From the NCBI GenBank assembly GCA_035759745.1, contig DASTUF010000084.1:10784-74783 (forward strand): a stretch of 64,000 nucleotides of DNA, read 5' to 3'. Below the pieces are notes generated by a model that had not been told where the DNA came from, did no database searches, and saw only the letters and a program-made list of their open reading frames with translations. A program made the position numbers and the translations under genes. This DNA comes from Gemmatimonadales bacterium (GTDB lineage: Bacteria; Gemmatimonadota; Gemmatimonadetes; Gemmatimonadales; GWC2-71-9). Shown piece after piece: positions 4,922 through 54,500 of the stretch (positions are counted from its first letter, which is position 1; each line of letters starts with the position of its first letter).

Positions 4922-4984
4922 CTGATCCCTGATCCCAGGTCCCTGACCCCTGACCCCACGCCTCACGTCCCACGCCTCACGCCC
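4922..4984. repeat. single-armed array of nine tandem heptamers (CTGATCC x2, CAGGTCC, CTGACCC x2, CACGCCT, CACGTCC, CACGCCT, CACGCCC)
   Basis: Read directly from the sequence; period 7 with no gaps, beginning 11 nt after the gpx stop. No complementary arm nearby. Confidence 0.9.
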
Positions 4985-8185: not shown

Positions 8186-8677
8186 ATGCGCCGTTCGATC
8201 GTCCTGCTGTTCGCTCTGGCTCTCGGTGGCACCGCCTCGGCCAGCGCCCAGGCCACGACCCCGGCCCCGGATCGGGCCGCCGACAGCGCTGCCGTGCTGG
8301 CCGTGGTCCACCGCGTCTTCGACGCCATGCGGAGCCGCGATTCAGCGCTGCTCCGCACCGCCTTTGCCGAGGACGCCCGGCTGTTCACGCCCGGCATGCG
8401 CGACGGCGCGCCGGTGGTGCACGCAGAACCCATCAACGGGTTCATCGAAGCCGTTGGCCAGCCCAGCGACTCGACCTGGGACGAGCGGATCTACGGAACG
8501 GAAGTTCGGCTCGACGGCGGCCTCGCCACCGTGTGGACCGAGTACGACTTTTTCCTCGGCAGCAAATTCCTGCACTGCGGCGTGGACGCCTTCCAGCTCG
8601 CGCGGTATCCCGATGGGTGGAAGATCACGAGCCTTGGGGACACGAGACAGCGGGAGGGGTGCCCCAAGAGACAGTAG
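8186..8677 (+). CDS. secreted NTF2-fold (SnoaL/DUF4440-like) protein
   Basis: Met at 8186 preceded by GGAGG. Signal peptide MRRSIVLLFALALGGTASASAQ. The C-terminal pattern (WTEYDF...CGVDAFQLAR..GWKI) is typical of NTF2-like folds. Confidence 0.7.
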   Translation: MRRSIVLLFALALGGTASASAQATTPAPDRAADSAAVLAVVHRVFDAMRSRDSALLRTAFAEDARLFTPGMRDGAPVVHAEPINGFIEAVGQPSDSTWDERIYGTEVRLDGGLATVWTEYDFFLGSKFLHCGVDAFQLARYPDGWKITSLGDTRQREGCPKRQ

Positions 8678-8680
8678 CAA

Positions 8681-8784
8681 GTGGGGAGTGGGGAGTGGGA
8701 AGTGGGGAGTGGGGAGTGGGGAGTGGGGAGTGGGAGGTGGTCTCTACTTCCTACTTCCCACTCCCCACTTCCCACTTCCCACTC
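8681..8784. repeat. heptamer hairpin (GTGGGGA/GTGGGAA flavour) with unequal arms
   Basis: The G-rich arm has 8 heptamers plus GTGG (8681-8740), then loop TCTC, then a C-rich arm TACTTCC x2, CACTCCC, CACTTCC x2, CACTC (8745-8784). The right arm encodes the last residues of the ligase. Confidence 0.9.
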
Positions 8785-9698
8785 AGCAGTCTTGGGTGTC
8801 TCAGCATCCCGTCATTGGTCCACTCCGAGAACCCCACGCTGGCCTTCAGGCGAGGCGTTACCCAGTGCGCCTTCTCGCTCGGAGCTACCCTGAGGCCTGC
8901 CACTGGCGGTCGCTGGCGCTCCAGCGGCGCCAGCCGCTGCCGGAGCTCACGCAGCATCGCATCGGTGAAGCCGGTGCCCACCTTGCCCGCATAGCGCAGC
9001 GCCCCGGCCTCCTTCACGCCCAGCAGCAGCGCGCCCAGCCCGGCTCGACTGCCCTTCGGCTCAGTCCAGCCGATGATGACGAACTCGCCCTGCTGCACCG
9101 GCTTGAGTTTGACCCAGTCGCGTGAGCGTCCGCTGCGATAGCTGCTGGCAGCGCGCTTTCCCATGAGCCCCTCAAAGCCCGCATCCACCATCGCGGCGAA
9201 CAGTTCGTCAAAGCTGCCATCCAGCACCGGGGTCAGGCGCAGTGCACCGAGGTCCTCGACCGACTGCTCGAGCAGCGCCCGGCGCTCGGTCCATGGAAGG
9301 CGCGTCACTCGCTTGCCTGCAAGCGCCAGGCAATCGAACACCGAATACTCCACCGGTACATCGCGTTGGATCGCCGGCGGCGGATTGGCCCGCTTCATTC
9401 GCTGCTGCAGCCGCGCGAAGCTGGGCACGCCGGTGGCGGGGTCGGTTGCGATGAGCTCGCCATCCACGATCGCGCCGTCGGGCAGCGCCTCGCCCAGCCG
9501 CGCCGCGACCTCGGGATAGTTGCCCTCCACCCGAAGCTTGTTGCGGGAATAGATCCGGATCTCGTTGCCCTGGCGGGACGCAATGGCCCGAACGCCGTCG
9601 AGCTTCGGCTCGTAGATCCAGCCATCCGGCAATGCGAGGGGCTTGACCAGGGTGGCCAGCATCGGCGCGATCCAGCCTCGCGGGCTGGCTTCGCTCAC
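8751..9698 (-). CDS. ligD: ATP-dependent DNA ligase (NHEJ LigD ligase domain protein)
   Basis: Adenylation motif EPKLDGVR and an OB-fold C-terminus. Start overlaps the upstream gene stop. Confidence 0.9.
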   Translation of the reverse strand: MSEASPRGWIAPMLATLVKPLALPDGWIYEPKLDGVRAIASRQGNEIRIYSRNKLRVEGNYPEVAARLGEALPDGAIVDGELIATDPATGVPSFARLQQRMKRANPPPAIQRDVPVEYSVFDCLALAGKRVTRLPWTERRALLEQSVEDLGALRLTPVLDGSFDELFAAMVDAGFEGLMGKRAASSYRSGRSRDWVKLKPVQQGEFVIIGWTEPKGSRAGLGALLLGVKEAGALRYAGKVGTGFTDAMLRELRQRLAPLERQRPPVAGLRVAPSEKAHWVTPRLKASVGFSEWTNDGMLRHPRLLSGKWEVGSGK

Positions 9699-13882: not shown

Positions 13883-13953
13883 AGGCGTGGGGCGTGAGGC
13901 GTGCGGCGTGGGGGTTTTGCCTCACGCCCCAGGCCCCACGCCCCACGCCTCAC
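13883..13953. repeat. heptamer hairpin (GGCGTGG/GGCGTGA flavour)
   Basis: AGGCGTGGGGCGTGAGGCGTGCGGCGTGGGGG (13883-13914), loop TTTTG, then CCTCACGCCCCAGGCCCCACGCCCCACGCCTCAC (13920-13953). The upstream gene's stop lies inside the right arm. Confidence 0.9.
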
Positions 13954-14966: not shown

Positions 14967-14985
14967 GGAAGGGTTCGGCCCCTCC

Positions 14986-15018
14986 TACTTCCCACTCCCC
15001 ACTAACCACTCCCCACTT
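14986..15018. repeat. single-armed C-rich heptamer array (TACTTCC CACTCCC CACTAAC CACTCCC CACTT)
   Basis: Read directly. Lies 7 nt downstream of the tRNA-Phe 3' end in the minus-strand sense. Confidence 0.85.
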
Positions 15019-15024
15019 GATGCA

Positions 15025-16804: not shown

Positions 16805-17457
16805 TGTCGCCCGATCGTTCGACGCAGTTGCCGAACCTGACGATCCTCGGGCATCCGCTGATCCAGCACAAGCTGACGCTGCTCCGGGATCGCAGCACCA
16901 GCACCCGTGACTTCAAGCAGCTGGTCAACGAGATCGCCATGCTGATGGCGTACGAGGTCACCAAGGACCTCGTCACCGAGCCGGTGGAGATCGAGACCCC
17001 GCTCGAGCGGACGACCGGCCAGCAGGTCGCCGGCAAGAAGCTCACGCTCGTGCCCATCCTGCGGGCGGGCCTCGGCATGGTCGAGGGCATCGCGCAGCTG
17101 ATTCCCTCTGCGCGGGTCGGTCACATAGGCATGTACCGCGATCACGACTCGCTGGAACCAGTCGACTACTATTTCAAGATCCCGGGTGGCGAGGAGGAGC
17201 GCGACTTTATCATTCTGGATCCGATGCTCGCCACCGGCGGCTCTGCGGTGGCTGCGGTCACGGCGCTCCGCCGTGCCGGTGCCAGGCGGATCCGGTTTCT
17301 CTGCATCGTCAGCGCGCCCGAAGGCGTGAAGCGCCTGCTGGATGCGCACGCCGACGTGCCGGTCTACACCGCCGCACTCGATCGCAAGCTCAATGAGAAG
17401 GGCTACATCCTCCCCGGCCTCGGTGACGCCGGCGACCGGCTGTTTGGAACGAGATAA
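16804..17457 (+). CDS. upp: uracil phosphoribosyltransferase
   Basis: [13 protein letters not shown], the PRPP-binding loop [11 protein letters not shown], and [19 protein letters not shown] overlaps the upstream TGA. Confidence 0.95.
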
Positions 17458-17547
17458 CTAGTGGGGGGTGGGAAGTGGGAAGTGGGCGGACCCACATTCC
17501 ACTTCCCACTCCCCACTCCCCACTCCCCACTTCCCACTTCCCACTAG
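17458..17547. repeat. heptamer hairpin (GTGGGAA/GTGGGGA flavour) bounded by CTAG...CTAG
   Basis: G-rich arm 17458-17486, loop CGGA, then a C-rich arm about twice as long (17491-17547). Starts 1 nt after the upp stop. Confidence 0.9.
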
Positions 17548-17559
17548 TCAGGCAGGTCA

Positions 17560-19652: not shown

Positions 19653-21029
19653 ATGCCGTACTCACGGCCGCTGACCGCGGCCCTCGTCGCCCTTGGCGCA
19701 CTGTGGCCCGGGCGCGGGCTCGCAGCCCAGTCCGCCGCGCTGCAGGTCCCGGTAGTGGTGGACACCCTGGACAACGGCCTCGTCCTGATGGTGCACGAGG
19801 ACGCCTCGGCGCCCATCGTGAACGTCAACGTCTGGTACCACGTGGGTTCAGGTGACGAGAAGCCCGGCCGCACCGGCTTCGCCCATCTCTTCGAGCACCT
19901 CATGTTCATGGGATCGGAGCACGCGCCCTATCCCGAGTTCGACCGGCGGCTGGAGGCGGCGGGCGCCAACAACAACGGCTCCACTACCGAAGACCGCACC
20001 AACTACTACGAGGAAGGCCCCGCCAACGCGCTGCCGCTCATGCTCTGGCTCGAGGCCGACCGGATGGGCTGGATGCTCCCCACCATGGACTCCGCCAAGG
20101 TGGATCTCCAGCGTGATGTGGTGAAGAACGAGCGGCGCCAGAGCTACGAAAACCAGCCGTACGGGATGGTGTGGGACCACCTGCCCCGGATGCTCTACGA
20201 TGCGTCGCACCCGTACTCGTGGCCGGTGATCGGGTCGATGGCGGACCTCAGCGCCGCGTCGCTCGAGGACGTGAAGCAGTTCTTCCGTGAATACTACGCA
20301 CCCAACAATGCTGCCATCGTGATAGCTGGCAACGTCAAGGCCGCCGACGTGAAGGCACTGGCCGAGCGCTATTTCGGGGCGATACCACGGGGGCCGGAGA
20401 TCAGCCGACCCACGCCCGTGGCAATCCCGCTGCGGGGCGACACCCTGCTGGTACTGGAGGATCGGGTGCAGCTCCCGCGGCTGTACTACGCCTGGCACAC
20501 CGTGAAGGGCTGGGCTCCGGATGACGCTGCACTGGATCTCGCCGCTTACGTGCTGACGGGCGCCAAGAACTCGCGCCTCACCAAGGAAATGGTCTACGAG
20601 GAGCAGACCGCCAGCAGCGTCTCGGCCTTCCAGGACGGCAAGCGACTGGCCGGCGAGTTCATGATCATCGCGACGGCGCGGCCGGGCACCACCCTGCCCA
20701 CCCTGCAGCAGGCCATCGACGCCGAGATCGCACGACTCGCAAGCGACGGCCCCACCTCTCGCGAACTGCAGCAGGCACAGAATGCGTTCGAGGCCAGCTT
20801 TCTCGACGGGCTGGAAAGTGTGGGACGCAAGGCGGACCGGCTCAATGCGTACTTCTACGCGCTGGGCGTGCCGGACTCCTTCCAGCGCGACGCCGACCGC
20901 TATCGCGCTGTCACCGCCGACGACATCCGGCGGGTGGTGCGCACCTACCTCACCGGCCCGCGCGCCGTCATCTCCGTTGTTCCCCAGGGTCAGACCAGGA
21001 TGGCTGCCCGTGAAAGGATGACACCATGA
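19653..21029 (+). CDS. M16 family (pitrilysin/insulinase) metallopeptidase, catalytic-type subunit
   Basis: Signal peptide from the Met at 19653. The inverted zinc motif HLFEHLMF (HxxEH) and NGSTTEDRTNY are present. Confidence 0.9.
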   Translation: MPYSRPLTAALVALGALWPGRGLAAQSAALQVPVVVDTLDNGLVLMVHEDASAPIVNVNVWYHVGSGDEKPGRTGFAHLFEHLMFMGSEHAPYPEFDRRLEAAGANNNGSTTEDRTNYYEEGPANALPLMLWLEADRMGWMLPTMDSAKVDLQRDVVKNERRQSYENQPYGMVWDHLPRMLYDASHPYSWPVIGSMADLSAASLEDVKQFFREYYAPNNAAIVIAGNVKAADVKALAERYFGAIPRGPEISRPTPVAIPLRGDTLLVLEDRVQLPRLYYAWHTVKGWAPDDAALDLAAYVLTGAKNSRLTKEMVYEEQTASSVSAFQDGKRLAGEFMIIATARPGTTLPTLQQAIDAEIARLASDGPTSRELQQAQNAFEASFLDGLESVGRKADRLNAYFYALGVPDSFQRDADRYRAVTADDIRRVVRTYLTGPRAVISVVPQGQTRMAARERMTP

Positions 21030-22558
21030 GCATCGACGGCTCGACGGCTCGACGGCTGGTGAGCCTGGTGGCGGCACTGACAGCGGCGCTCCTTGCCGGC
21101 GGTTGCGCCTCGCAGCCCGCACCGGCGACTCCAGCTCCCGCCACGCCGCAGACGGGTGTGCCTTCGGCGGAGGCCGCATCCACCATCATGGCCACCGCGC
21201 CGGACCTCGGCTCGGCGCCCCGGCTGGTGCTCCCATCACCCACGGAGACGACACTACCCAACGGCCTGACCGTCAAGTTGGTCGGCATGCATGAAGTCCC
21301 GGTGGTGCAGGCGGTGCTCACAATCGAGGGCGGCGCCCGGCTGGACGGCGAGCTGGCCGGCCTCGCCACTTTCGTGGGCGGGATGCTCGACGAGGGGGCC
21401 GGCGATCGCGACGCCTTTGAGCTCGCGGCCCAGGTCGAGTATCTCGGCGCCTCGCTCGGCACTGGCGCCGGGTGGGACGCCACCACGATTTCGCTGCGGG
21501 CGCCCAAGCGCACTATCGGGGACGCGATGGCGGTCATGGGCGACGTGGTGCTCCAGCCCCGCTTCGCTGCCGAGGATGTCGAGCGGCAGCGCGACCTTCG
21601 CATCGCCAGCATCCTGCAGTCCCGCGACCAGCCCGGCGCCGTTGCCGGCAACGTGTTCGGCTACACCGTGTACCCGGCGGCACATCCATATCATCGCCCC
21701 ATCGGAGGAGACAGCATCAGCACGGTGCAGCTCGATTCCGCCGTGGTACGCGAGTTCTGGAACCGTGCCGCGGACCCGCGGAGGGCAACCCTGGTGATCG
21801 CCGGCGACCTTACGCTGGACGAAGCGCGAGCCCTGGCGACGAGTGCCCTGGGCAGCTGGCAAGCACCCACCACCACTGCAGCCGCGGATCCAGCCAGGGC
21901 CGCAGAACCGCCGCGCCCGACGACCCGCGTCTTCCTGGTGGACAAGCCGGAGGCCGCGCAGAGCGTGCTGATGATCGGCGCGCCCGGGGTCGCGCGCAGC
22001 TCGCCCGACTACCCCGCGATCACGCTCATGAACACGATCCTTGGTGGCTCCTTCTCGTCCCGGCTCAATGACATCCTCCGGGAACAGAAGGGATTCACCT
22101 ACGGAGCGCGATCGAATTACAGCTGGCGGCCGCTGCCGGGGCCGTTTGTCGCGAGCGCAGCGGTGCGGACCGACGTAACCGACAGCTCGCTCGCGATCTT
22201 CTTCGACGAGTTCCGCCGGATCCGGAGCGAGCCGGTGACGCCACAGGAGCTCGACCGGGCCAAGTCCTACATCACACTGGGTGCGCTGGGCGAGTTCGAA
22301 ACCACGGGGCAGGTTGCAGGAGAACTGTCGTCGCTCGAGATGTTCGGGCTCACCCTCGCCGACATCCCGAAGGAACTGGACCAGGTGAAGGCGCTGGGCG
22401 CAGCTGACGTTCAACGCGCCGCCGAGCGGTACCTTGATCCTGCGCACCTGACGATCGTGGTGGTGGGAGACGTGAAGAACATTCGGGCCGGCGTCGAGGC
22501 ACTGAGCCTCGGGCCGGTGACGCTGCTGGATCACGAGGGAAATGAGGTGACACCGTGA
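21026..22558 (+). CDS. M16 family peptidase-like protein, non-catalytic type (no HxxEH)
   Basis: M16 fold-like sequence with lipoprotein-like signal LLAGGC. The HxxEH motif is absent. 4-nt overlap with both neighbours. Confidence 0.85.
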   Translation: MSIDGSTARRLVSLVAALTAALLAGGCASQPAPATPAPATPQTGVPSAEAASTIMATAPDLGSAPRLVLPSPTETTLPNGLTVKLVGMHEVPVVQAVLTIEGGARLDGELAGLATFVGGMLDEGAGDRDAFELAAQVEYLGASLGTGAGWDATTISLRAPKRTIGDAMAVMGDVVLQPRFAAEDVERQRDLRIASILQSRDQPGAVAGNVFGYTVYPAAHPYHRPIGGDSISTVQLDSAVVREFWNRAADPRRATLVIAGDLTLDEARALATSALGSWQAPTTTAAADPARAAEPPRPTTRVFLVDKPEAAQSVLMIGAPGVARSSPDYPAITLMNTILGGSFSSRLNDILREQKGFTYGARSNYSWRPLPGPFVASAAVRTDVTDSSLAIFFDEFRRIRSEPVTPQELDRAKSYITLGALGEFETTGQVAGELSSLEMFGLTLADIPKELDQVKALGAADVQRAAERYLDPAHLTIVVVGDVKNIRAGVEALSLGPVTLLDHEGNEVTP

Positions 22559-23916
22559 GAATGGAATCCGTGCTGGCGCTGGCGCTGCTGTCGGTCGGTG
22601 GCACCGCGTCGGCCCAGACGCTCGACGTGCCGACCGACACGTTCACGCTCGACAACGGCCTGCGCGTGGTGGTGCACGAGGACCACTCCGCGCCGGTGGC
22701 GTCGGTGAACATCTGGTATCACGTCGGCTCCGGCCGGGAAACCGAGGGCCGCACCGGCTTCGCCCACCTGTTCGAGCACATGATGTTCCAGGGCTCGGCC
22801 AACGTGGGCGACGATGCCCACTTCAAGACCATCCAGGGCGCCGGCGGCACCCTCAACGGCTCCACCAACGGTGATCGCACCAACTATTACGAGACGGTGC
22901 CCGCCAATTACCTGGAGACCGCGCTCTGGCTCGAGGCGGACCGGATGGGCTGGCTGCTGCCGGCCATGACCCAGGGCAAGCTCGACAACCAGCGCGACGT
23001 GGTGAAGAACGAGCGGCGCCAGAACTACGAAAACCGCCCCTACGGCATGACCTCGATCCGGATCAGCGAGATGCTGTACCCCGCTGATCATCCGTATCAC
23101 TGGCCCACCATCGGTTCCCAGCAGGACCTGACTGCAGCTTCCATGGAGGACGTGCAGGGCTTCTTCCGCACCTGGTACGCGCCCAACAACGCGTCGCTGG
23201 TGGTGGCGGGTGACGTGCAGCCAGCGGAGGTTCGGAGGCTGGCCGAGAAGTACTTCAGCGCCATTCCTTCGGGAGAGCCGATTCCTTCGCCGAAAGCGCG
23301 GCCGGTGACGCTCGACGCCGATCGTCGCGCCGTGCTGGAGGACCGGGTGACGCTGCCCCGGGTGCAGCTCACGTGGCCCACCGTCGAGGGGTGGCATGCC
23401 GATGAAGCAGCGCTCGACATTATGGGCAGCATCCTCGGTGGCGGCAGAACCTCGCGGCTGTACGAGCGGCTGGTCTACCGGGAGCAGGCGGCACAGAGTG
23501 CCTTCGCGTTCAATAGCTCGAGGGAACTGGCCGGCAGCTTCGGGATAACCATCACCGCCCGGCCGGGCACCAGCCTGTCGCAGATGGAGCGCGCGGCCTA
23601 CGAGGAAATCCGGCGGCTGGCGGAAGAGGGCCCCACCCCCGAGGAGGTGGCGGCGGCCCGCAACGGCATCGAGTCGTCCTTCGTGTTCCGGCTCGGTTCC
23701 ACCGCGGGCAAGGCCAACCAGCTCAACGACTACAACACCTTCCGCGGCGCGCCTGACATGTTCAATCAGGACCTGGCGCGCTTCACCGCCGTTACCGCGG
23801 CCGACGTGCAGCGGGTGGCGCAAACCTACCTGGCCGGCAAGCCCAAGGTGGTGCTGTCGACCGTTCCCAACGGCCAGCCCGAGCTGGCCGCCCAGCCGCC
23901 AGAGGTGCAACCGTGA
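22555..23916 (+). CDS. M16 family metallopeptidase, catalytic-type subunit
   Basis: HLFEHMMF (HxxEH) is present. Clear paralogue of 19653-21029. Confidence 0.9.
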   Translation: MRMESVLALALLSVGGTASAQTLDVPTDTFTLDNGLRVVVHEDHSAPVASVNIWYHVGSGRETEGRTGFAHLFEHMMFQGSANVGDDAHFKTIQGAGGTLNGSTNGDRTNYYETVPANYLETALWLEADRMGWLLPAMTQGKLDNQRDVVKNERRQNYENRPYGMTSIRISEMLYPADHPYHWPTIGSQQDLTAASMEDVQGFFRTWYAPNNASLVVAGDVQPAEVRRLAEKYFSAIPSGEPIPSPKARPVTLDADRRAVLEDRVTLPRVQLTWPTVEGWHADEAALDIMGSILGGGRTSRLYERLVYREQAAQSAFAFNSSRELAGSFGITITARPGTSLSQMERAAYEEIRRLAEEGPTPEEVAAARNGIESSFVFRLGSTAGKANQLNDYNTFRGAPDMFNQDLARFTAVTAADVQRVAQTYLAGKPKVVLSTVPNGQPELAAQPPEVQP

Positions 23917-25358
23917 TCCGGACCTTCACTCGCGTCGCCGTGGGCGCGGCGCTCCTCGCGTCTCCGCTTGCGGCCCAGGAGCTGGACCGCACCATTCCGC
24001 CCACTCCTGGTCCGACGCCTTCGGTGGCAATGCCCGACGTTCAAGTCCGGACACTGCCCAACGGCCTGACGCTCTGGGTGGTCGAGTCTTCGGAGTTGCC
24101 GACCATCAACGCGGTGCTGACCTTCAGCGCCGGGTCGGCCCAGGATGGCGACCTGCCGGGCCTCGCGGCCATGACAGCGGAGCTGCTCGACGACGGCGCC
24201 GGCAGTCGAGATGCGCTCCAGTTTGCCCGGGCGGTCGAACTGCTCGGCATCGGCCTCAGTGCCTTTGCCTCCGAAGAGCGTGTAAGCGTCTCGCTGTCCA
24301 CGCTCACCCGGACCGCCGATTCGGCGTTCGCGCTGATGGGTGACCTGGTGATGCGTCCCACCTTTGCGCCGGAGGAACTCGAGCGCGAGCGGAAGTCGCG
24401 GCTGCAGTCGCTGCGGCAGCAGCAGGATCAGGCCTCGACGGTCGCGACGCTGACCTTCAACGAACTGGTTTATGGCAGCAGCCATCCCTATGGGCGCCCG
24501 TCGAACGGCACCCCCGAAGCAGTCGGGCGCATCAGTCGGGATGATATCCAGAAGTACTTCTCCACCTGGATCCGGCCCAACAACGCCGTGATGGTTGTGG
24601 TAGGCGATGTCACTCCCGATGCCGCGATGGCGCTGGCGCAACGCACCTTCGGCGGGTGGGAGAAGGGTCCGATTCCGGAAGCCGCAAAGGCCAGCCCCGC
24701 CCGCCCGGAGGCGCGGAGTGCCACCGGGGTGTACCTGGTGGACAAGCCCGGCGCAGCCCAAAGCGAGATCCGGATCGGGCATGTCGGCGTGCCGCGTAGC
24801 TCGAAGGACTACTATCCACTCCAGGTGATGAACGCGCTGCTGGGCGGGCAGTTCACCAGCCGCATCAACCTCAACCTGCGCGAGGACAAGGGTTACACCT
24901 ACGGCGCGCGCAGCGGTTTCTCGTTTGACCGCGGACCCGGGCCGTTCGTCGCGTCGGCCGGCGTCTTCACCGCCAAGACCGACAGCTCGCTCATCGAGTT
25001 CATGAAGGAGCTGCGCGACATCCGGAGCAGCCGCCCGGCCACCGAGGCCGAGGTGAGCTTCGCCCGGGGATCGCTGGTCCAGTCGTATCCGCGGATGATC
25101 GAGACCAACAGCGGTGTTGCCAGCCGGCTGGCGGAACTCGCCTTCTTCGGCTTGCCGCCTGCCGAACTCGCGCGCTATCCCGAGGCGATCGAGGCCGTGA
25201 CCACGGCCGACGTGGCGCGGGTGGCGAAGGAGTATCTCCACCCCGACCACGCGGTGATCGTGGTGGTGGGCGACCTGGCGACCATCCGGGGCGGCATCGA
25301 GGCGCTGCACCTCGGCCCGGTGACCGTGGTGCCGGGGGAGGAGGCGGGGACGCGGTAA
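23913..25358 (+). CDS. M16 family peptidase-like protein, non-catalytic type
   Basis: Paralogue of 21026-22558 (shared ...FTSRINLNLREDKGYTYGARS / ...FSSRLNDILREQKGFTYGARS). No HxxEH. Confidence 0.85.
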   Translation: MIRTFTRVAVGAALLASPLAAQELDRTIPPTPGPTPSVAMPDVQVRTLPNGLTLWVVESSELPTINAVLTFSAGSAQDGDLPGLAAMTAELLDDGAGSRDALQFARAVELLGIGLSAFASEERVSVSLSTLTRTADSAFALMGDLVMRPTFAPEELERERKSRLQSLRQQQDQASTVATLTFNELVYGSSHPYGRPSNGTPEAVGRISRDDIQKYFSTWIRPNNAVMVVVGDVTPDAAMALAQRTFGGWEKGPIPEAAKASPARPEARSATGVYLVDKPGAAQSEIRIGHVGVPRSSKDYYPLQVMNALLGGQFTSRINLNLREDKGYTYGARSGFSFDRGPGPFVASAGVFTAKTDSSLIEFMKELRDIRSSRPATEAEVSFARGSLVQSYPRMIETNSGVASRLAELAFFGLPPAELARYPEAIEAVTTADVARVAKEYLHPDHAVIVVVGDLATIRGGIEALHLGPVTVVPGEEAGTR

Positions 25359-25378: not shown

Positions 25379-25496
25379 ACCGGAAGGGGCGCACCGCGTG
25401 CGCCCTTTTCTTTTCCGTGCTCCGTCCATGCCCGTGCGCGCCCGAATGGCCCGTGGTCGCCCGACCATGGGCGCACGCGGTGCGCCCCTTCCCGGT
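25379..25496. repeat. inverted doublet of a 27/28-nt palindromic REP-like element (REPIN-like)
   Basis: Copy 1 is ACCGGAAGGGGCGCACCGCGTGCGCCC (25379-25405). The reverse complement of copy 2 (25469-25496) is ACCGGGAAGGGGCGCACCGCGTGCGCCC. They are 63 nt apart and directly 3' of the RAYT gene. Confidence 0.85.
25386..25415 (+). terminator. intrinsic terminator after the M16 operon (also REP-like copy 1)
   Basis: GGGGCGCAC-CGC-GTGCGCCC stem-loop followed by TTTTCTTTTCC. Confidence 0.75.
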
Positions 25497-25502
25497 CCGG
25501 CG

Positions 25503-26024
25503 TCATGGCGGGAAGCGTCGGTGCGGGCCGCGATAATCCAATGGATTCCGTTCGATGTACCGCGTTGCATGGAAGAGGTGCTCATCGTTCCGGATATGGC
25601 TCTCGCGGTAATTGCGTTGCCACACACGAGCACCTGGAGTGCTGCGCAGGATGTTGATCTGGGAGGTACACGAAGCCTTGAATCCCGCGATCAGCGACCC
25701 GAGGCTCCCCTTGGGGCGTCTGTAAGCCCCCGCGAAGGTCACACCAGAACGGCTCGATCCGTCGAGATGGAGGATGCCGTGCATGTGATCGGGCATCACG
25801 ACAAAGGCGCCCGACCTGACCTCTGGTCGGAGCTCCTCACAGTTGCGCCACTCCGCTTCAACGACCTTGCCGAGGTCGGACAGCTCCATCTGCTGGCCGA
25901 CGACAACCCCGAAGAGCGGCTCCCGCAAATACGTGCAGAGAGTCACGAAGTAGCTGGCTCGCGCGCGATAATCCCGATCGCGAAATCGCAGCGAACGCCG
26001 TAAGTGATCTTCAGGATTGGACAT
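25503..26024 (-). mobile_element. REP-associated tyrosine transposase (RAYT; IS200/IS605-type Y1 HUH transposase-like), solitary
   Basis: 173 aa with HUH motif VVMPDHMHGILHL and catalytic-Tyr region ATRYIERNPL. No tnpB and no IS ends seen. Flanked on the 3' side by the REP-like doublet. Confidence 0.8.
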
Positions 26025-26098
26025 GAACTATTGTTCATGCTGGCCGCCCAGAGACATAACCAGACAAACTCAGGCCTACTCCCGAAACTCCAGACCCC

Positions 26099-26635
26099 AT
26101 GCCCTTCCTCTCCACCCAGCGCATCCACACCGGCAAGGTGCTGAACCTCGACATCGACACCGTCGAGTTTCCCGATGGATCCACCGGCACGCTCGAGATG
26201 ATCCGGCATCCCGGTGCCAGCGCGGTGCTGCCGTTCCTCGATGATCCCGGTGAGCCCGATCCCCGCGCCCTGCTCATTCGCCAGTTTCGCCACGCTGCCG
26301 ACGGCGACATTTGGGAGATCCCCGCCGGACGGCTCGATCCGGGCGAGGAGCCGGTCGATTGTGCCCATCGGGAGCTGGCCGAGGAGACGGGATACGCCGC
26401 CACCACAATCGAGCCGCTCATCAGCGTGTTCACCACCCCCGGCTTCACCGACGAGGTGATCCACCTCTTCGTCGCCACCGGCCTCACAGCCGGCACCCCC
26501 CGCCGGGAAGCCGACGAATTCGTCGAGACCCACGAGCTGCGCTGGTCCGAGGTGCTCCGGCTGGTCCAGTCCGGCGAAATCCGCGACGGAAAGACCCTCG
26601 CGGCCATCCTCTATCTGCAGGCGTTTCGCCGATAG
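26099..26635 (+). CDS. NUDIX hydrolase (ADP-ribose pyrophosphatase-like)
   Basis: Nudix box GRLDPGEEPVDCAHRELAEETGY. Confidence 0.9.
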   Translation: MPFLSTQRIHTGKVLNLDIDTVEFPDGSTGTLEMIRHPGASAVLPFLDDPGEPDPRALLIRQFRHAADGDIWEIPAGRLDPGEEPVDCAHRELAEETGYAATTIEPLISVFTTPGFTDEVIHLFVATGLTAGTPRREADEFVETHELRWSEVLRLVQSGEIRDGKTLAAILYLQAFRR

Positions 26636-26689
26636 CCGCTGCTTTCACTGAAGCTTTCTGGATACCCCGCAGGGCGGTAAGATTCCCCA

Positions 26690-27742
26690 ATGCCGTCCCG
26701 CACCATGAAGGAAGTCTCCGTAGAAGTCCGGAAGGGCTCGTTTGCCCCCGCCTACCTCCTCCACGGCTCCGAAGAGATCCTGAAGGACGAGATGGCGCGG
26801 GTGATCCTGGAGCAGGCCCTCGATCCTTCCACCCGTGACTTCAACCTCGACCAGGTCTCGGCGGCATCCCTGGACGACGAGGGCGTGGAATCACTCTGCA
26901 ACACCCTGCCGATGATGGCGGACCGTAGGGCGGTCGTGATCCGCGATCTCGATGCCTGGAAGCGGCGGGCCAAGGCCAAGTCGGCTTTCCTGCGCTACCT
27001 CAGCCAGCCCTCCGAGTCCACGGTGGTGGTCCTGATCCAGGCCGGGGACGACGCACCGGACAAGGACATCGCCAAGCAGGCCGTGACGATCAACTGCACT
27101 CCCGAGAGCACCCGGGCCCGGGAGAGCTGGGTTCGCCGCAAGGCCGAAGCCCAGGACGTCGTGTTGGACGATGAGGTGCTGCGGCACCTGGTACAGGCGA
27201 CCGACAGCCTGGCGGGCGCTTCGCTCGAGGTGCAGAAGCTCGCTTCGCTCCCTGCCGGCACCACGATGACCCTCGAGCTGGTGGGCGACCTGATCGGGGT
27301 GAGGCACGGCGAGACCAGCCTCGACTGGCGCAACGCCATCATGGACGGGGAGCCGGGCAAGGCGGTGGCGTTGCTCGAACCGGTGCTGGGCCAGTCCGGC
27401 ATGAGTGGGGTCAAGCTGGTCAACCTGCTGAGCGTCACGCTGGCCGGCGTGGGCGTCGCGCGTGCCGCGTATGACCGGGGTAGCCGAGGTGCCGCTCTGT
27501 CGAAGGTCGCGATGGACAGCATGCGGGAAGCGCGTCCCTTCGGACTCGGCTCCTGGAGCGACGAGTCCAGTCGCTGGGCGCGCTGGGCGGCATCCTGGCC
27601 CGAGCACCGGTTGCAGCGGGCTGTCTCGCACACACTTGCTGCTGACACCGCCCTCAAGTCCACGACGCTGTCAGGCGAGGTGGGTGTGCTGACCGACCTG
27701 ATCTTCCAGCTGGCTCCGACCGAGGTGATGGCCGCGCGATGA
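26690..27742 (+). CDS. holA: DNA polymerase III subunit delta
   Basis: The N-terminus ...APAYLLHGSEEILKDE and overall length are typical of HolA. The start could instead be the Met at 26705. Confidence 0.8.
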   Translation: MPSRTMKEVSVEVRKGSFAPAYLLHGSEEILKDEMARVILEQALDPSTRDFNLDQVSAASLDDEGVESLCNTLPMMADRRAVVIRDLDAWKRRAKAKSAFLRYLSQPSESTVVVLIQAGDDAPDKDIAKQAVTINCTPESTRARESWVRRKAEAQDVVLDDEVLRHLVQATDSLAGASLEVQKLASLPAGTTMTLELVGDLIGVRHGETSLDWRNAIMDGEPGKAVALLEPVLGQSGMSGVKLVNLLSVTLAGVGVARAAYDRGSRGAALSKVAMDSMREARPFGLGSWSDESSRWARWAASWPEHRLQRAVSHTLAADTALKSTTLSGEVGVLTDLIFQLAPTEVMAAR

Positions 27743-28773
27743 GATTGCTCCGTTCCCCGCTGGCCTTCCTGGTCGTGGTCCTTCTGGCCGCCGGAGCGCC
27801 ACGTGAGGCGCTGTCCCAGACCGATGCCCGGCTGACCGGTGCGGTGGCGCTGGCCCAGGAAGGTCACGGCGATTCCGCGCGTGCCATCGTGCAGCAGGTG
27901 CTGGGCTCGGTAACATCCTCCGATCCGCTTTACGTCGAGGCGTTGCTGGCCCGGGCCCGGTTGGCCGAGTCTGCCGACACGATGCGCCGCCAGCTGCAGC
28001 AGATCACCGTCGAGCACGCGCTGTCACCGTGGGCTGACGATGCACTGCTGGCGCTGGCCGAGCTGGAATACGCCAGTGGCAACATCCCCGCGACCACGCG
28101 AAATCTGGAGCGCTTCCGCAGCGACTATTCAGCGTCATCGCTGCTGTCCGCGGCGGCGTTCTGGGCGGCGCGGGCCTACTTCGATACCCGCAACGAGAGA
28201 GCGGCGTGCGAGTGGGTGGGAATGGGCCTGGCTCGCATTGCACGTGCTCCCGCCGACATTGCGCCCCAGCTCGAGTTCTTTGCCCGGCGCTGTCCTTCCA
28301 CCGCACTCGCAGCGGGCAGCGCCCAGCTGCCGCCCCTCCCGCCGGCCGACACGATCGCACTGGTGACGACTCCCGATCCGGGGCGGCCCACCATGGACCC
28401 GGCGCCGAGTCCCGCGGCACGCGACACTGCCGTGGTCCTGAAGCCGCCCCCGCACGACTCGCTGCGACGCGACCCCGGCGTGATCATCGCGCGCCTGGAC
28501 ACCACCAGTCAGGCAGCTCCACCTGCGCCCTCTCCTGCACCGGAGCCGGGCCCTCGGCTCTACCGGATTCAGGTGGTTGCGGCAAGTAATGCGGCCGACG
28601 CCGCCGCCGCGGTCGAAAAACTCAGGGCCCATGGCTACGACGGACGCGTGGTTCAGGAGGGCGGCTACCACAAGGTGCGCGCTGGCGGCTGGCCCACCCG
28701 GAACGGCGCGCGCGCGGCGCTCCCCGCGCTGTCGGCGCTCTTCCCTGGCGCCTTCGCCGTTAGGGATCCCTGA
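27739..28773 (+). CDS. TPR-like plus SPOR domain-containing protein
   Basis: Signal peptide, helical-repeat middle, a Pro-rich linker, and a C-terminal SPOR-like YRIQVVAASNAADAAAAVEKLRAHGYDGRVVQEGGYHKVRAG. Confidence 0.75.
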   Translation: MRLLRSPLAFLVVVLLAAGAPREALSQTDARLTGAVALAQEGHGDSARAIVQQVLGSVTSSDPLYVEALLARARLAESADTMRRQLQQITVEHALSPWADDALLALAELEYASGNIPATTRNLERFRSDYSASSLLSAAAFWAARAYFDTRNERAACEWVGMGLARIARAPADIAPQLEFFARRCPSTALAAGSAQLPPLPPADTIALVTTPDPGRPTMDPAPSPAARDTAVVLKPPPHDSLRRDPGVIIARLDTTSQAAPPAPSPAPEPGPRLYRIQVVAASNAADAAAAVEKLRAHGYDGRVVQEGGYHKVRAGGWPTRNGARAALPALSALFPGAFAVRDP

Positions 28774-37930: not shown

Positions 37931-37988
37931 GGCGTGAGGCGTGGGGAAATACCTCACGCCCCACGCCCTACGCCCCACGCCCCACACC
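37928..37988. repeat. heptamer hairpin (GGCGTGA/GGCGTGG flavour)
   Basis: TGAGGCGTGAGGCGTGGGG (the first TGA is the CBS stop), loop AAATAC, then CTCACGCCCCACGCCCTACGCCCCACGCCCCACACC. The right arm is about twice the length of the left. Confidence 0.9.
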
Positions 37989-40909: not shown

Positions 40910-42256
40910 GCCGACGCAGAACTCGCTGAACACCCGTCCCAGCACCTCCTCGACATCCACCACCCCGATCAGCTCATCCAGCGCCAGCACGGCCTGCCGG
41001 ACGTGATGGGCGCACAGCACCGCGTCGCCGAGTGGCGCCGCGAGTTGAGCGCGGGCCACACCCAGCTCGCCGCGTGCACGTTCCAGCGCCACCCGGTGGC
41101 GGGTGCGCGTGAGCATCGGCTCCAGATCCGCCAGCTGCACCCGGTCACCGAAGAGTCTGTCGGCGATCGTGCGCCGGAGGTCCGCCAATCCTTGCCCCGT
41201 CACTACCGATACTCCATCTGACCGACCGGTCAGATCCGCCTTGGTATGGACAATGAGTTCAGAGTTGAGAGTTGAGAGCTGAGAGTTGAGATCCTTGGTC
41301 GGGACGAGGGTGGTCACTCTCAACTCTTGACTCTCAACTCTCGACTCGTCCGCACACACTAGCACTAAATCCGCACTATCCAGCCACCGTCGACTCACTG
41401 CGACACCCAGAGCCTCGATTCGGTCACTGGTGTCGCGAATGCCGGCCGTATCGACCAGCCGGACCGGCCAGCCGAGGAAGGTAACGTGCGCCTCGATCGC
41501 GTCCCTGGTGGTGCCAGGAACTTCGGTGACTATGGCTCGCTCGGAGCCCAGCAGCGCATTGAAGAGCGAGGACTTGCCCGCGTTTGGCCGACCGGCCAGT
41601 ACGACAAGGGCGCCCTCGCGGAGCCGAGTTCCTTCCGGCGCGGTGGACAGTAATGTGTCAATTCTGGCGCAGGTCTGGTCCAGCTGACTCTGGAGCCTGT
41701 CGGGCGCGATGGGCCCGTCGTCTTCGCCGGGGAAATCGATCTCGTAGCTGAGAAGGCCGAGCAGGTCGAGGAGCGAGCTGCGGAGTTCGAGGATGCGGCG
41801 GGAAAGGTTGCCGTCGAGCTGGGCCAGCGCTGCGCGCGCCTGGGCCGGAGCGGTCGCATCGATCAGGTCACCCACCGCCTCGGCCTGGACCAGGTCCATG
41901 CGGCCGTTGAGCACCGCACGGCGGGTGAACTCTCCAGCGGCGGCCTGGCGGGCACCGGCGGCGATGAGCGCGGCCAGCAGTCGTTCCGGAGCCACCAGAC
42001 CGCCGTGGCAGGAGAACTCGACGGTGTCCTCTCCGGAGTAGCTGGCCGGTGCGGGAAAGACGGTGTACAGCCCGCGGTCGATGGGCCGGTCGCCCGAATC
42101 GTGAAAGGTCGCGAGCTGGGCGACCCGAGGTTCGGCCCGGAATCCCTGCACTATTTTCGCCGCGATCTCGAATGCTCCGGGGCCCGCCAGCCGCACGATC
42201 GCCAGCGCCGAGCGGCCCGGCGGTGTGGCGAGCGCGACTATCGCGTCCCCGAACAT
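40904..42256 (-). CDS. mnmE: tRNA modification GTPase MnmE
   Basis: N-terminal DAIVALATPPG, G1 GRPNAGKSS, G3 DTAG, G4-like TKAD, and the C-terminal CVGK. Contains a heptamer hairpin in frame. Confidence 0.95.
   Translation of the reverse strand: MFGDAIVALATPPGRSALAIVRLAGPGAFEIAAKIVQGFRAEPRVAQLATFHDSGDRPIDRGLYTVFPAPASYSGEDTVEFSCHGGLVAPERLLAALIAAGARQAAAGEFTRRAVLNGRMDLVQAEAVGDLIDATAPAQARAALAQLDGNLSRRILELRSSLLDLLGLLSYEIDFPGEDDGPIAPDRLQSQLDQTCARIDTLLSTAPEGTRLREGALVVLAGRPNAGKSSLFNALLGSERAIVTEVPGTTRDAIEAHVTFLGWPVRLVDTAGIRDTSDRIEALGVAVSRRWLDSADLVLVCADESRVESQELRVTTLVPTKDLNSQLSTLNSELIVHTKADLTGRSDGVSVVTGQGLADLRRTIADRLFGDRVQLADLEPMLTRTRHRVALERARGELGVARAQLAAPLGDAVLCAHHVRQAVLALDELIGVVDVEEVLGRVFSEFCVGK
41255..41347. 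repeat. heptamer hairpin (GAGTTGA flavour) located inside the mnmE coding sequence
   Basis: GAGTTCA GAGTTGA GAGTTGA GAGCTGA GAGTTGA (41255-41289), a 25-nt loop, then ACTC TCAACTC TTGACTC TCAACTC TCGACTC (41316-41347). Confidence 0.9.
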
Positions 42257-51429: not shown

Positions 51430-51460
51430 CCCGGGCGGCCGGCGGGCCGCCCCTAATCCT

Positions 51461-51502
51461 CACTTCCCAATTCCCACTTCCCACTTCCCACTTCCCACTT
51501 CA
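51461..51502. repeat. single-armed heptamer array (CACTTCC x4, CAATTCC, CACTTCA); G-rich on the minus strand
   Basis: Read directly. The kinase stop codon is the last triplet of the array, and no complementary arm is nearby. Confidence 0.9.
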
Positions 51503-54500
51503 ACCCCTGACCCCCGAAATCCCCGCCAGCCCCTCGCGCGCAAACCGCACGTAGCCCTGCAGCGACTCGTCGGCGTATTTCCATTGCTCCAGCACCCGTT
51601 CGTACTCGGTCCGGGCCTCGGCGGTGCGCCCCAGCCGGTGGAGCAGTTCCGCCCGCAGCAGCCGCACCCGTCCCAGCATGGCCCAGCGGGGATCGAAGCT
51701 GCCGGTGCGCAGCAACTCCGGCTCGTACCCCTCGAGCAGGGCGAGCGCGGTCTGGTACTCGCCCAGCGCAGCCCAGGCCTGGGCCGCGAGCGGCCTGCGA
51801 TACACCACGTACTTCTGCATCATGCCCTGGGCCGAGTCCGACTCAGCCAGCGCAGCGCGCGCGGTGGCCGAGTCAGCCCGCGTGATCTCGGTGCCGGACA
51901 GCGCCAGCAGTGCACGGACTTCGGCTGGGAGCGGCTGCCTGGTGAGCGCTGCGAGCTCGGTGACGGCAGTGGTATCCATCTGCAAGCCGGTGAAGAGCCC
52001 GATCGCGGCAGCAGCACCGCTGTTGAGGACCGGCTCGCGACGTTCCTCAGGTGCCTCGCGCGCGGCCTCGGCCGCGCTCTGCCACACCCGGCGCAACGCG
52101 GAGCCGGGTGCACCCGACGCGGCGTACAGTTCTCCCAGGGCAGTGCGGCTCCAGTTCCCACCACCGCCTGCCTCATCGCCGATGTAGGGATAGACCGACG
52201 ATCGCACCCGCTCGGCCAGCTCGATGGAGCGCGCAGCCGCGGCGAGGTCGCCCTGATAGGCAAACACGTTCGCGGCCGACGCTACATCGCCGAACACCGC
52301 CGGGGTGCTGGCGAGAGGGCGGAAGTCCTCCGGCCCGGTGGAATCGAGCGCGGCCCGCAACAACTCCGCCGCCTGCTCCACCCGCCCGGCGGCGAAATGC
52401 ACCTGGGCCTCGATGAACGGCGTTTCCGGGTGCTCCGTCGTTACGGCACGATAGCGTTCGATCTCGGATATCGCGCCGTCGAAATTGCGCGAGCCGACCA
52501 GTGCATCCACCAGCGCGCCGTGCGCCCGGGGAGCGGTCGGCTGGGTCGCAACCCAGGACTGGGCCAGGTTCACCGCGGTCGAACGTGCGCGGTCGGCATT
52601 GCGCGCGCGCCCCGCAGCGTCGGACGGTCGGGTGGCGGTTCGGGCCAGGGCGAACGAGTCATTGGCAAGCAACGCCACCGACGCGCCTTCCCGCGCGGCG
52701 CTGTTGAGCATCTGCTCGATGTGCTCGTACGCCAGCACATAGTCCGGGTCCAGCGCGAGGGTGCGCCGGAAGGAGCGCAACGCCTGGGTCATCGTTGCCG
52801 GCATCGAGTCGAGCCCCGACTCATCGTGGAACCAGGCTTCGCCCAGTCCGTACCAGGCGTCGACATCAGTGGAGTCGCGGGCGATCAGCTCCTGGTAGAG
52901 ATTCCGGGCGCTACCGTAGTCAGCCTCCAGAAATGCGCGGTAGGCCGCGATGATCTTGCGCTCGTGCAGCGGCAGCTTGGCGCTGAACGCGACCGCCCGG
53001 GCCATCGCGTGGTCGCTCACGGAATCCGCCGGGCCCACCATCCAGCCGCGGGTCAGCGCCAGCTTGTAGTACGCCAGCCCGAACGTACTGTCGGTGCGGG
53101 TGGCCTCGCGGAGCGCGCGCTCGGCGGAGGTGAGGTCCCAGTGATTGAGCGCCTCGACGCCCTGCAGATACGAGCGATACGCCGCGAGCGACCCGGTGGT
53201 CGCCTGAGTCAGCGCGGTGCGCGCCTGAGCCGGAGCCCCGGCCAGGTCGAGCAACTGGAAGGCAAGCCGGTCGTACAGCAGGCGGGGGTCGGCCAGCGCC
53301 GCGCCTGATGCCTCTGCCGTCTCGAGCGCCTCGCCCGAAGCCACATCATAGAGCGTCGCCACAACCCGCAGCGAATCACCTACCCGCTCGAACCGTCCCA
53401 GCGCCACCGTCCACACGCCGGCGTCGCGGGCAATCTCACGCGCCTCGTCCCGGCCGATCGCCTCGCCCTCGGCAACATTGTGCTGCTCCAGCAGGTCGTG
53501 CACCCGGTCTGCATCGACCAACTGCAGGTCATTCCACTGTGCCAGGCTCATCGTGAGAATGCTGACACTGCCGCTACCGAGCCACGCCACCGACGAATCG
53601 TTGCGCAGGTTGTCGAACGGGAGCACGAGCAGCGAGTGCCGGGGATTGACGCCTTCGGGCGGCCCGTTCGCGCGCCCGCTCAATGTCACGCCCAGCGCGG
53701 CAAGCAACACCGCGCCCAGCCCACCGATCATCGCCAGCCGCTTGACCTTCCGCCGGCGAGGCGGGGAGATCTCGCCGGCGATGGCCCGGCGGAAGTCCTC
53801 ACCTGACTGCCACCGCTGGGACGGATTCTTCTCCAGCGCATGCGCGATGGCGGCGGCGAGCGGTTCCGGCGTGTCGGGGCGGAGCTTGCGCACCGGTGGC
53901 GCCGGCTCGGCGATGTGGCGCGAGACCACGACCCGGTTGGGTCCCTCGAAGGGTGGCGATCCCGCGAGCATCTCGAACGCCACCACGCCCAGTGAGTAGA
54001 GATCGCTGCGCGAATCCACTTCCTCTCCCGCCGCCTGCTCGGGACTCATGTAGGCGGGGGTGCCCACCGCCACGCCGCTGGCGGTCCGCTCGCCGGTTTC
54101 CGCCTGCAGCAACACCCGGGCGATCCCGAAGTCGGCCAGCATCGCGCGGCCCGAGCCGCTGTCGAGCAGGACGTTCTCCGGCTTTACGTCGCGGTGAACA
54201 ATTCCCGCGTGGCTGGCGGCGTCCAGTGCCGCCGCGATGTCGGAAGCGATGCGTGCCACTTCGGCGGACGGCAGCCGGCGTTCGCGCAGCAAGCGCGCGC
54301 GAAGGGTTTCGCCCGGCACCTCGTCCATGACGTAGTAGAGCAGTCCCTCGCCGGTGCCGGCGGCATGGACGGTGACGATGTTGGGATGGCGCAGCCTGGC
54401 GATGGTGCGGGCTTCGGAGAGGAACCGCCGCGCGAGAGTCTCGTGGCCGGCCAGTTCGGGATGGATGACCTTGATCGCGACCGGGCGGTCCAGCGTTACG

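Follow-up and report, generated by a model that had tools for sequence, protein, structure and literature searches.

The spacer between an M16 peptidase operon and a gene encoding a NUDIX hydrolase in the 64-kb stretch of Gemmatimonadales DNA analyzed here (referred to below as the window) is occupied by a RAYT gene, i.e., a gene encoding a TnpA_REP-like Y1 HUH transposase (25503..26024, minus strand; 173 aa), which was identified from the ORF, a family alignment, a profile, and a structural model. The genome is a metagenome-assembled one, and the protein has the NCBI entry HEU4800882.1 with the locus tag VFS94_09630, where it is labelled 'hypothetical protein'. Two REP copies in inverted orientation were found 3' of the gene: a proximal one (25469..25496, minus strand), which begins a few nucleotides past the RAYT stop codon, and a distal one (25379..25405, plus strand), which forms part of an intrinsic-terminator-like structure of the M16 peptidase operon (25382..25415, plus strand). 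The doublet spacer located between them (25406..25468; 63 nt) is poorly conserved between lineages. The divergent spacer between the RAYT and NUDIX genes (26025..26098; 74 nt) contains no REP copy, both REPs being located 3' of the RAYT gene. The sequence TGAACAATAGT is present directly before the RAYT start codon and is kept in all three of the RAYT-bearing lineages described below. No tnpB gene is present beside the RAYT, the flanking genes encoding the M16 peptidase and the NUDIX hydrolase, and no second RAYT-like ORF was seen in the 64-kb window. The tandem M16 (pitrilysin-type) peptidase genes run through positions 19700-25358 and show internal paralogy at an offset of 2,881 nt (76% identity between 19954-20168 and 22835-23049, for example).

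The transposase and its family

The 173-aa product carries VVMPDHMHGILHL and RYIERNPLDY, in agreement with the minus-strand Y1/HUH ORF reported in a first-pass annotation of this DNA. The HUH motif corresponds to H79-M-H81, and the catalytic tyrosine is Y155, within YIERNP. H79 and H81 do not vary among 25 aligned homologs, and Y155, W134, N159, and P160 show almost no variation. No family was found in a Pfam search at E ≤ 0.01: PF01797 gives the protein 12.9 bits, which is below the cut-off of 23, and the score obtained with the NCBIfam model NF047646 (REP_Tyr_transpos; E 3e-17, 62.8 bits) is below the cut-off of 80. The class 2 TnpA_Y1 proteins are poorly covered by PF01797 according to Quentin et al. 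(PMC6006769). These sub-threshold scores mark the RAYT of the window as a divergent branch of the family. All 25 aligned homologs match NF047646, and five of them also weakly match the IS200 model.

When a profile of the alignment of these homologs was searched against the PDB, the top match was 4ER8, the TnpA_REP of E. coli (E 2.6e-7), with the IS200 protein 2EC2 behind it (E 1e-4); the IS200 and ISDra2 transposases ranged from 1e-4 to 4e-3. The profile was needed here, since a PDB search with the single sequence reached 4ER8 at an E-value of only 0.61. The AF2 model of the protein (pLDDT 86.5, low in the 91-110 blocks) matched exclusively Y1 transposases in Foldseek (E ≤ 1e-3), among which 4ER8 gave the best query TM-score and coverage (TM 0.59, rmsd 4.8 Å), the other Y1 matches having query TM-scores of 0.45-0.51. 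The agreement between the fold, the motifs, and the profile searches supports the view that this protein belongs to the REP-associated Y1 transposases and resembles E. coli TnpA_REP more than it does IS200 TnpA. Together with the single-copy, syntenic occurrence of the gene in relatives (see below), it bears out the earlier suggestion that this is a domesticated RAYT rather than an IS200 TnpA.

After clustering at 50%, the wider family comprises 18,855 representatives at E ≤ 1e-3 and 8,692 at E ≤ 1e-10. The whole Gemmatimonadales clade falls into one 50% cluster, all the other members of the family showing at most about 50% identity. Residue S141 of the window's RAYT (codon at about 25602-25604) aligns with H101 of E. 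coli TnpA_REP, a residue that contacts GTAG (PMC6006769). At the equivalent position, Ser is found in the Gemmatimonadales clade (ES[HY]IR), and R or H in most of the other homologs aligned.

The REP doublet and its counterparts beside other RAYT homologs

The doublet consists of two inverted copies of GGAAGGGGCGCACCGCGTGCGCCC, the arms of which (25382-25405 and 25469-25492) are 24 nt long, 100% complementary, and 63 nt apart. In its 27/28-nt form, ACCGG(G)AAGGGGCGCACCGCGTGCGCCC, the element covers 25379-25405 on the plus strand and 25469-25496 on the minus strand, with a one-base indel between the two copies, and these coordinates confirm exactly the inverted pair that the first-pass annotation had described. 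Beyond this, on the 5' side, the copies are more loosely similar over about 5 nt (CCGSACCGG). Each copy is composed of a tetranucleotide followed by a GGGCGCAC-N3-GTGCGCCC hairpin, as had also been reported: the proximal REP reads ACCGG-GAAG-GGGCGCAC-CGC-GTGCGCCC on the RAYT sense strand, folds into a hairpin as ssDNA, and has no T-tract, and the distal REP reads ACCG-GAAG-GGGCGCAC-CGC-GTGCGCCC, with its GAAG at 25383-25386. The 161-nt doublet region folds as one long hairpin (-96.8 kcal/mol, z = -6.1), and an Rfam search over the doublet gave two chance-level matches, far under the gathering scores. The doublet, with its inverted REPs, its short spacer, and the single long hairpin that it can form, has the layout of a REPIN, as previously proposed, although the feet are GAAG and not the canonical GTAG.

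When the 20-mer core of the REP was searched for in the 64-kb window with up to 3 mismatches, the two sites of the doublet were found and no others. The number expected by chance was 0.15, and none of 100 shuffled sequences gave two matches. No REP was detected beyond the two at the gene in the window, where no further copy had been seen at first pass either, or in the flanks of the relatives. The absence of further copies in 64 kb bounds their density at about ≤47 per Mb. Since the 16-mers flanking Group 4 RAYTs are scarce, amounting to about 14 occurrences per replicon (PMC5581495), no extra copy is to be expected in a stretch of 64 kb, and the window data are fully compatible with an ordinary small REP population in the genome.

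The same hairpin occurs beside other RAYT homologs. At L132 (41% identity), which like L130, L131, and L133 below is a locus picked by its protein alone, inverted copies of GTAGGGGCGCACCGTGGTGCGCCC are located on both sides of the RAYT, and arrays of the same REP core run alongside the RAYT of a 47% homolog (L130). Six further homologs (39-55% identity over the aligned stretch) adjoin GTAGGGGCGCAC-YGC-GTGCGCCC. At the paralogous loci, the REPs read GTAG. No such REP was recognized at the locus of a 43% homolog (L131), which has only C/G-rich repeats, and a 38% homolog (L133) is accompanied by a different GTAG REP, GTAGCGGCGGCCTTTATGGCCGCC. The sequence of the hairpin is therefore clade-specific and not family-wide.

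A metagenome scan with GGWAGGGGCGCACYGCGTGCGCCC yielded at least 152 matches on at least 120 contigs. Among the matches listed, up to 4 REP copies were present per contig of 1.5-3 kb, and the hosts had GC contents of 37-45% and 56-74%. Neighboring REPs in the matches listed are mostly convergent, with the tetranucleotides outermost as in the window, and their spacers usually measure 18-34 nt. In this sample, which is not a census and in which the known JGI contig of the relative L129 is not among the matches listed, 151 of the 152 exact REP matches read GTAG and one reads GAAG. An adjacent RAYT homolog is present on at least eight of the REP-bearing contigs, two of which correspond to the L123-type locus described below. 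The scan of genome contigs with AAGGGGCGCACNNNGTGCGCCC was generic: the matches listed were hairpins from many phyla, and no RAYT homolog was found within 8 kb of any of the loci among them.

Since the same core flanks homologs of 40-55% identity at unrelated loci and occurs in other organisms as a dispersed, often doubled REP, we regard it as settled, at the level of sequence association, that the tetranucleotide plus GGGCGCAC-N3-GTGCGCCC hairpin is the putative cognate REP of this RAYT clade. The first-pass annotation had left unclear which repeat family this RAYT serves, if any: the association of the core with RAYT homologs elsewhere points to the doublet's own hairpin, and not to the heptamer hairpins which are also present in the window.

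At two of the homologous loci, REP cores were found within the RAYT-aligning region itself, at about position 1391 in L220 and, in the form of an inverted pair, at about 602-651 in L230 (RAYT-sense coordinates). These internal cores fall in the stretch of variable length which separates the HUH motif from the Tyr motif. In subclass 2.4, REPs located within the tnpA_REP gene have likewise been described (PMC6006769). On low-GC contigs (0.37-0.45), the REP is included in a longer conserved repeat, TATTATTGCGCCAAT-GGTAGGGGCGCACYGCGTGCGCCC-AAAATGTCATCTAGATATTT, which is carried by L136, L141, L143, L154, L159-L161, L163, L167, L173, L175, L177, L183, L184, and L186.

Inheritance of the locus, the distal arm, and the tetranucleotide

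The gene order M16 operon, RAYT, and NUDIX-holA-SPOR-mutS is common to the window and to two other types of locus: the L123 type, represented by many Logan contigs, and the L129/L256 type, represented by JGI contigs. The RAYTs of these two types show 72% and 71-72% amino acid identity with that of the window, respectively. The nucleotide identity between the RAYT gene of the window and its L123 and L129 orthologs is 71-75%, and the dN/dS ratio of 0.14-0.20 indicates that the RAYT is under purifying selection. In a further relative, L255 (a 79-kb ENA contig), the M16 and NUDIX genes are 96 nt apart, with neither RAYT nor REP, and the entire 740-nt segment is absent.

The tree based on the identity of the flanks is ((window, L256), L255), L123, and the RAYT distances roughly track it. 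Since L255 nests within the RAYT-bearing lineages in terms of flank identity, a loss in L255 is preferred, and a single ancient presence at the M16|NUDIX site followed by this one loss would be the most parsimonious scenario. Synteny and the flank tree show that the RAYT already occupied this site before these Gemmatimonadales lineages diverged from one another, and that it has descended vertically at one locus. The data support the pattern expected of a domesticated RAYT, namely that of a single-copy, syntenic gene.

Between the window and L129, the amino acid identity is 71% in the case of the RAYT versus 92-93% in that of its neighbors (22555-25358 and 26099-28773), and dS is 0.92 versus 0.26-0.31, which amounts to an about threefold faster divergence, with dN/dS staying low. 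This excess divergence may be due either to faster evolution or to the replacement of the allele by recombination, both of which are possible. It could also be taken to mean that this is an active IS200/IS605-type element or a recently acquired mobile REPtron, the presence or absence of which would reflect insertion; the lack of the whole 740-nt segment in L255 and the fact that five of the 25 homologs weakly match the IS200 model would suit this explanation as well. However, the same site is occupied in the outgroup L123 and in two ingroup lineages, and three independent insertions at one site would therefore be required. In addition, the RAYT distances roughly follow the flank tree, there is no tnpB, only a single copy is present in the window, and the hairpins are identical and located on one side, instead of forming distinct left and right ends; the absence of tnpB and of IS ends, which had been claimed earlier, was thus corroborated. 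An explanation based on mobility is highly improbable in our opinion, and vertical inheritance with one loss is the reading adopted here.

At L123 and L129, the orthologous loci, 23 of the 24 nt of the proximal REP are conserved. Although the gene has diverged by 25-29%, neither REP shows more than one difference in its 24 nt from one lineage to another; at that divergence, the probability of this is about 0.003-0.009 per copy, and the hairpins are therefore constrained. The contig L190 was inferred to be the M16-side half of the L123 locus because the two share a 23-nt repeat at their contig ends and their flank distances are equal. The doublet spacer contains a different short tandem duplication in each lineage: two copies of a 16-nt unit in the window (25430-25464, the near-duplicates being located at 25430-25445 and 25449-25464), three copies of CATGGGCGCACGCAGT, repeating the left half of the REP, in L256 (7568-7615), and a 23-24-nt unit in the L123 type (L123 3520-3548 with L190 1-23). 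All eight of the eight L123-type contigs, which come from independent assemblies, end inside the 23-24-nt array.

The distal hairpin lies 24 nt past the stop codon of the last gene in the M16 operon and is followed by TTTTCTTTTCC. A terminator consensus scan found this copy to be terminator-like, with 13 pairs and a loop of 3, in line with the T-tract terminator which the first-pass annotation had assigned to it and which can be regarded as a predicted one. In the ssDNA fold, the AAG of the distal GAAG pairs with the start of the T-tract and an 11-bp stem is formed, versus a stem of 8-9 bp in the case of a GTAG copy. The copies equivalent to the distal REP adjoin the M16 stop codon in L129/L256 and in L190, and T-rich tails are retained at these copies in L256 (…CCCCTTTTCG) and L190 (…CCCCTTCTTGTTT). 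From the sequence and the folding, it is very likely that the distal arm has been recruited as an intrinsic terminator by the M16 peptidase operon, which runs convergently, and it is plausible that the longer stem resulting from the AAG:T-tract pairing could explain the retention of GAAG in this arm.

The question arises here as to whether the two hairpins are a mere terminator pair serving two convergent genes and unconnected to the transposase. The position of the distal hairpin and its T-tract directly past the M16 stop codon could be explained in this way, and AAGGGGCGCAC-N3-GTGCGCCCCTT hairpins were found to trail genes in many phyla among the matches listed. On the other hand, the proximal copy has no T-tract, the 24/24-nt identity between the arms is needless in the case of terminators, the same core flanks RAYT homologs of 40-55% identity in unrelated gene neighborhoods, and a quite different hairpin is present at this spacer in the RAYT-less L255. 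It is thus very unlikely that the hairpins are terminators and nothing else, and they are treated below as the REPs of this RAYT.

Both arms carry GAAG and a CGC loop in the window, instead of the canonical GTAG, and both carry GAAG and a TGC loop in L256/L129. The arms of the outgroup differ at 2 sites, the proximal one being GTAG/CGC (L123) and the distal one GAAG/TGC (L190, the inferred M16 side). The two arms of the window do not differ from each other, nor do those of L256, and the difference between the window and L256 lies in the loop (C/T), this comparison involving two variable sites and three lineages. Conversion between the arms or selection for arm-to-arm pairing may account for their identity. 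As regards the tetranucleotide, a change at position 2 (GCAG) in the case of S. maltophilia TnpA_Sm leaves binding intact and nearly abolishes cleavage (PMC8266576), and it may be that the local GAAG REPs are poor substrates for this reason. In the case of Marinomonas TnpA_Mb, selectivity is mainly for positions 3-4, and changes in the first two are tolerated (PMC8266576).

These data raise the possibility that the pair may be frozen, i.e., that there are no dispersed REPs, that the GAAG arms are no longer cleaved, and that the protein is kept for a local or non-REP host role. The lack of extra REPs in 64 kb, the presence of GAAG in both arms when 151 of the 152 exact metagenome matches listed read GTAG, the persistence of purifying selection, and the Ser at the position of the GTAG-contacting H101 of E. 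coli, where R or H occurs elsewhere (PMC6006769), are all consistent with this idea. However, the bound which the window sets on further copies is the density given above, low-abundance 16-mers are typical of Group 4 (PMC5581495), and the tolerance of TnpA_Mb extends to the first two positions of the tetranucleotide (PMC8266576). We consider it unlikely that the pair is frozen. The particular scenario in which the RAYT has long been under purifying selection with its sole REPIN at its own 3' end, the foot having drifted to GAAG and the distal arm serving as a terminator, and has been kept for a local function, seems more doubtful still. If the pair were indeed frozen, this lineage would provide a natural case for the cellular role of a RAYT, with the RAYT-less L255 as a control.

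Comparison with known systems and interpretation

E. coli TnpA_REP/RayT (YafM; 4ER8) shares the Y1 HUH fold with the RAYT of the window, and the HUH, WQ, and Y-x-x-x-NP motifs of the two proteins align. It is also encoded by a single-copy chromosomal gene, beside which there are REP hairpins in inverted orientation, each with a tetranucleotide as its 5' foot. The identity between the two proteins is only about 22%, the E. coli system (REP/BIME) belonging to RAYT Group 2 and to Quentin subclass 2.2. In the REPs of E. coli, the stem contains a bulge and no change in the GTAG is tolerated (PMC8266576), whereas the stem in the window forms a perfect 8-bp palindrome around a 3-nt loop and is preceded by GAAG.

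By resemblance, the window's RAYT seems to be most like subclass 2.4 of Quentin (2018), which corresponds to Group 4 of Bertels (2017). The features in common are a segment of variable length between the HUH strand (beta3) and the next helix (alphaC), the fact that many relatives of the window's RAYT match in two stretches, the REP copies inside the RAYT ORF (L220 and L230), a stem foot consisting of three G-C pairs, the lack of a C-terminal extension, and scattered hosts, the GC contents of which range from 37 to 69%. These traits are listed for subclass 2.4, which occurs in Cyanobacteria, Bacteroidetes, and scattered phyla (PMC6006769). The fit between the motifs is partial: NH[IFV]H, WQ, and YIxNNP in subclass 2.4 versus DHMH, WQ, and YIERNP in the window. 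The REPtron Sm of S. maltophilia resembles the present locus in that GTAG directly precedes a perfect 16-nt palindrome with a 3-nt interruption (PMC8266576); it belongs to Group 3/subclass 2.5, its protein carries DH[LF]H and YI[VI]ANP and is about 151 aa long, and its REPs are highly abundant. The IS200/IS605 TnpA proteins (IS608, ISDra2, and IS200) share their fold and their catalytic motifs with the RAYT of the window, but their profile scores are weaker, and the window's gene lacks both tnpB and distinct left and right ends and has a position which is fixed across lineages.

Most RAYTs have one REP on each side of the gene. This is the case at L132 and L223, whereas both REPs are located on one side in the window. 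The REPINs of Pseudomonas fluorescens, which were reportedly described by Bertels and Rainey in 2011, are similar to the doublet in that they have inverted REPs, a short spacer, one long hairpin, an adjacent RAYT, and arms that are alike within the genome. The Pseudomonas REPINs occur in hundreds, whereas in the window there is a single doublet at the gene, with a terminator-like distal arm.

Altogether, it seems probable that this locus is a minimal 'REPtron', consisting of a domesticated RAYT and its own cognate REPIN, which has been inherited vertically and of which the distal arm has been co-opted. By analogy with E. coli, S. maltophilia, and Marinomonas, the RAYT would bind the folded single-stranded GGGCGCAC-N3-GTGCGCCC along with the tetranucleotide at its 5' foot, and the DNA would be nicked and rejoined via Y155, with the HUH pair holding a metal ion. 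The RAYT is ancient at this one locus, where it has been passed on vertically, and was probably dropped in one lineage. The distal REP arm would have been taken over as the terminator of the M16 operon, the AAG of GAAG extending the stem, and the arms may have been homogenized by conversion, or their pairing selected, as in the case of REPINs.

The gene, which has its own REP doublet, is a divergent and unannotated representative of the large RAYT family already known. The local twists observed, namely the one-sided doublet, the GAAG feet, the terminator-like arm, and the RAYT-less sister lineage, stay within known RAYT/REPIN biology and are modestly interesting. This analysis provides both an identity and a likely DNA target for a gene which NCBI calls 'hypothetical protein' and which Pfam misses, and GTAG-GGGCGCAC-N3-GTGCGCCC, which is common to distant phyla, is found to go with one RAYT clade. 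Three lineages with RAYT and doublet and one lineage without them provide a natural comparison at a single spacer, which bears on the reasons for the retention of domesticated RAYTs; the present knowledge of RAYTs is not altered in kind.

The window also carries intergenic hairpins of another type, which are composed of tandem heptamers followed by complementary heptamers, with the units (AGTGGGG)n/(CCCCACT)n, (GGCGTGG)n/(CCACGCC)n, and (GAGTTGA)n/(TCAACTC)n. They are located at 8673-8797, 17453-17552, 14977-15019, and 51445-51513, at 13884-13953, 4922-4983, and 37943-37985, and at 41255-41347. The sequence of the unit varies from site to site, the architecture being constant, and no link with the RAYT was seen. 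The idea that the RAYT might serve these heptamer hairpins was rejected: they have no sequence in common with the hairpins flanking RAYTs, having rightly been called unrelated at first pass, and in the relative that has no RAYT, the spacer is taken up by a similar hairpin made of repeats. In the latter case (L255, 7447-7542), the whole M16|NUDIX spacer is a hairpin in which about 5.6 copies of GTAGAAGAG precede the complementary sequence, and this hairpin occupies the place of the REP doublet and RAYT of the window.
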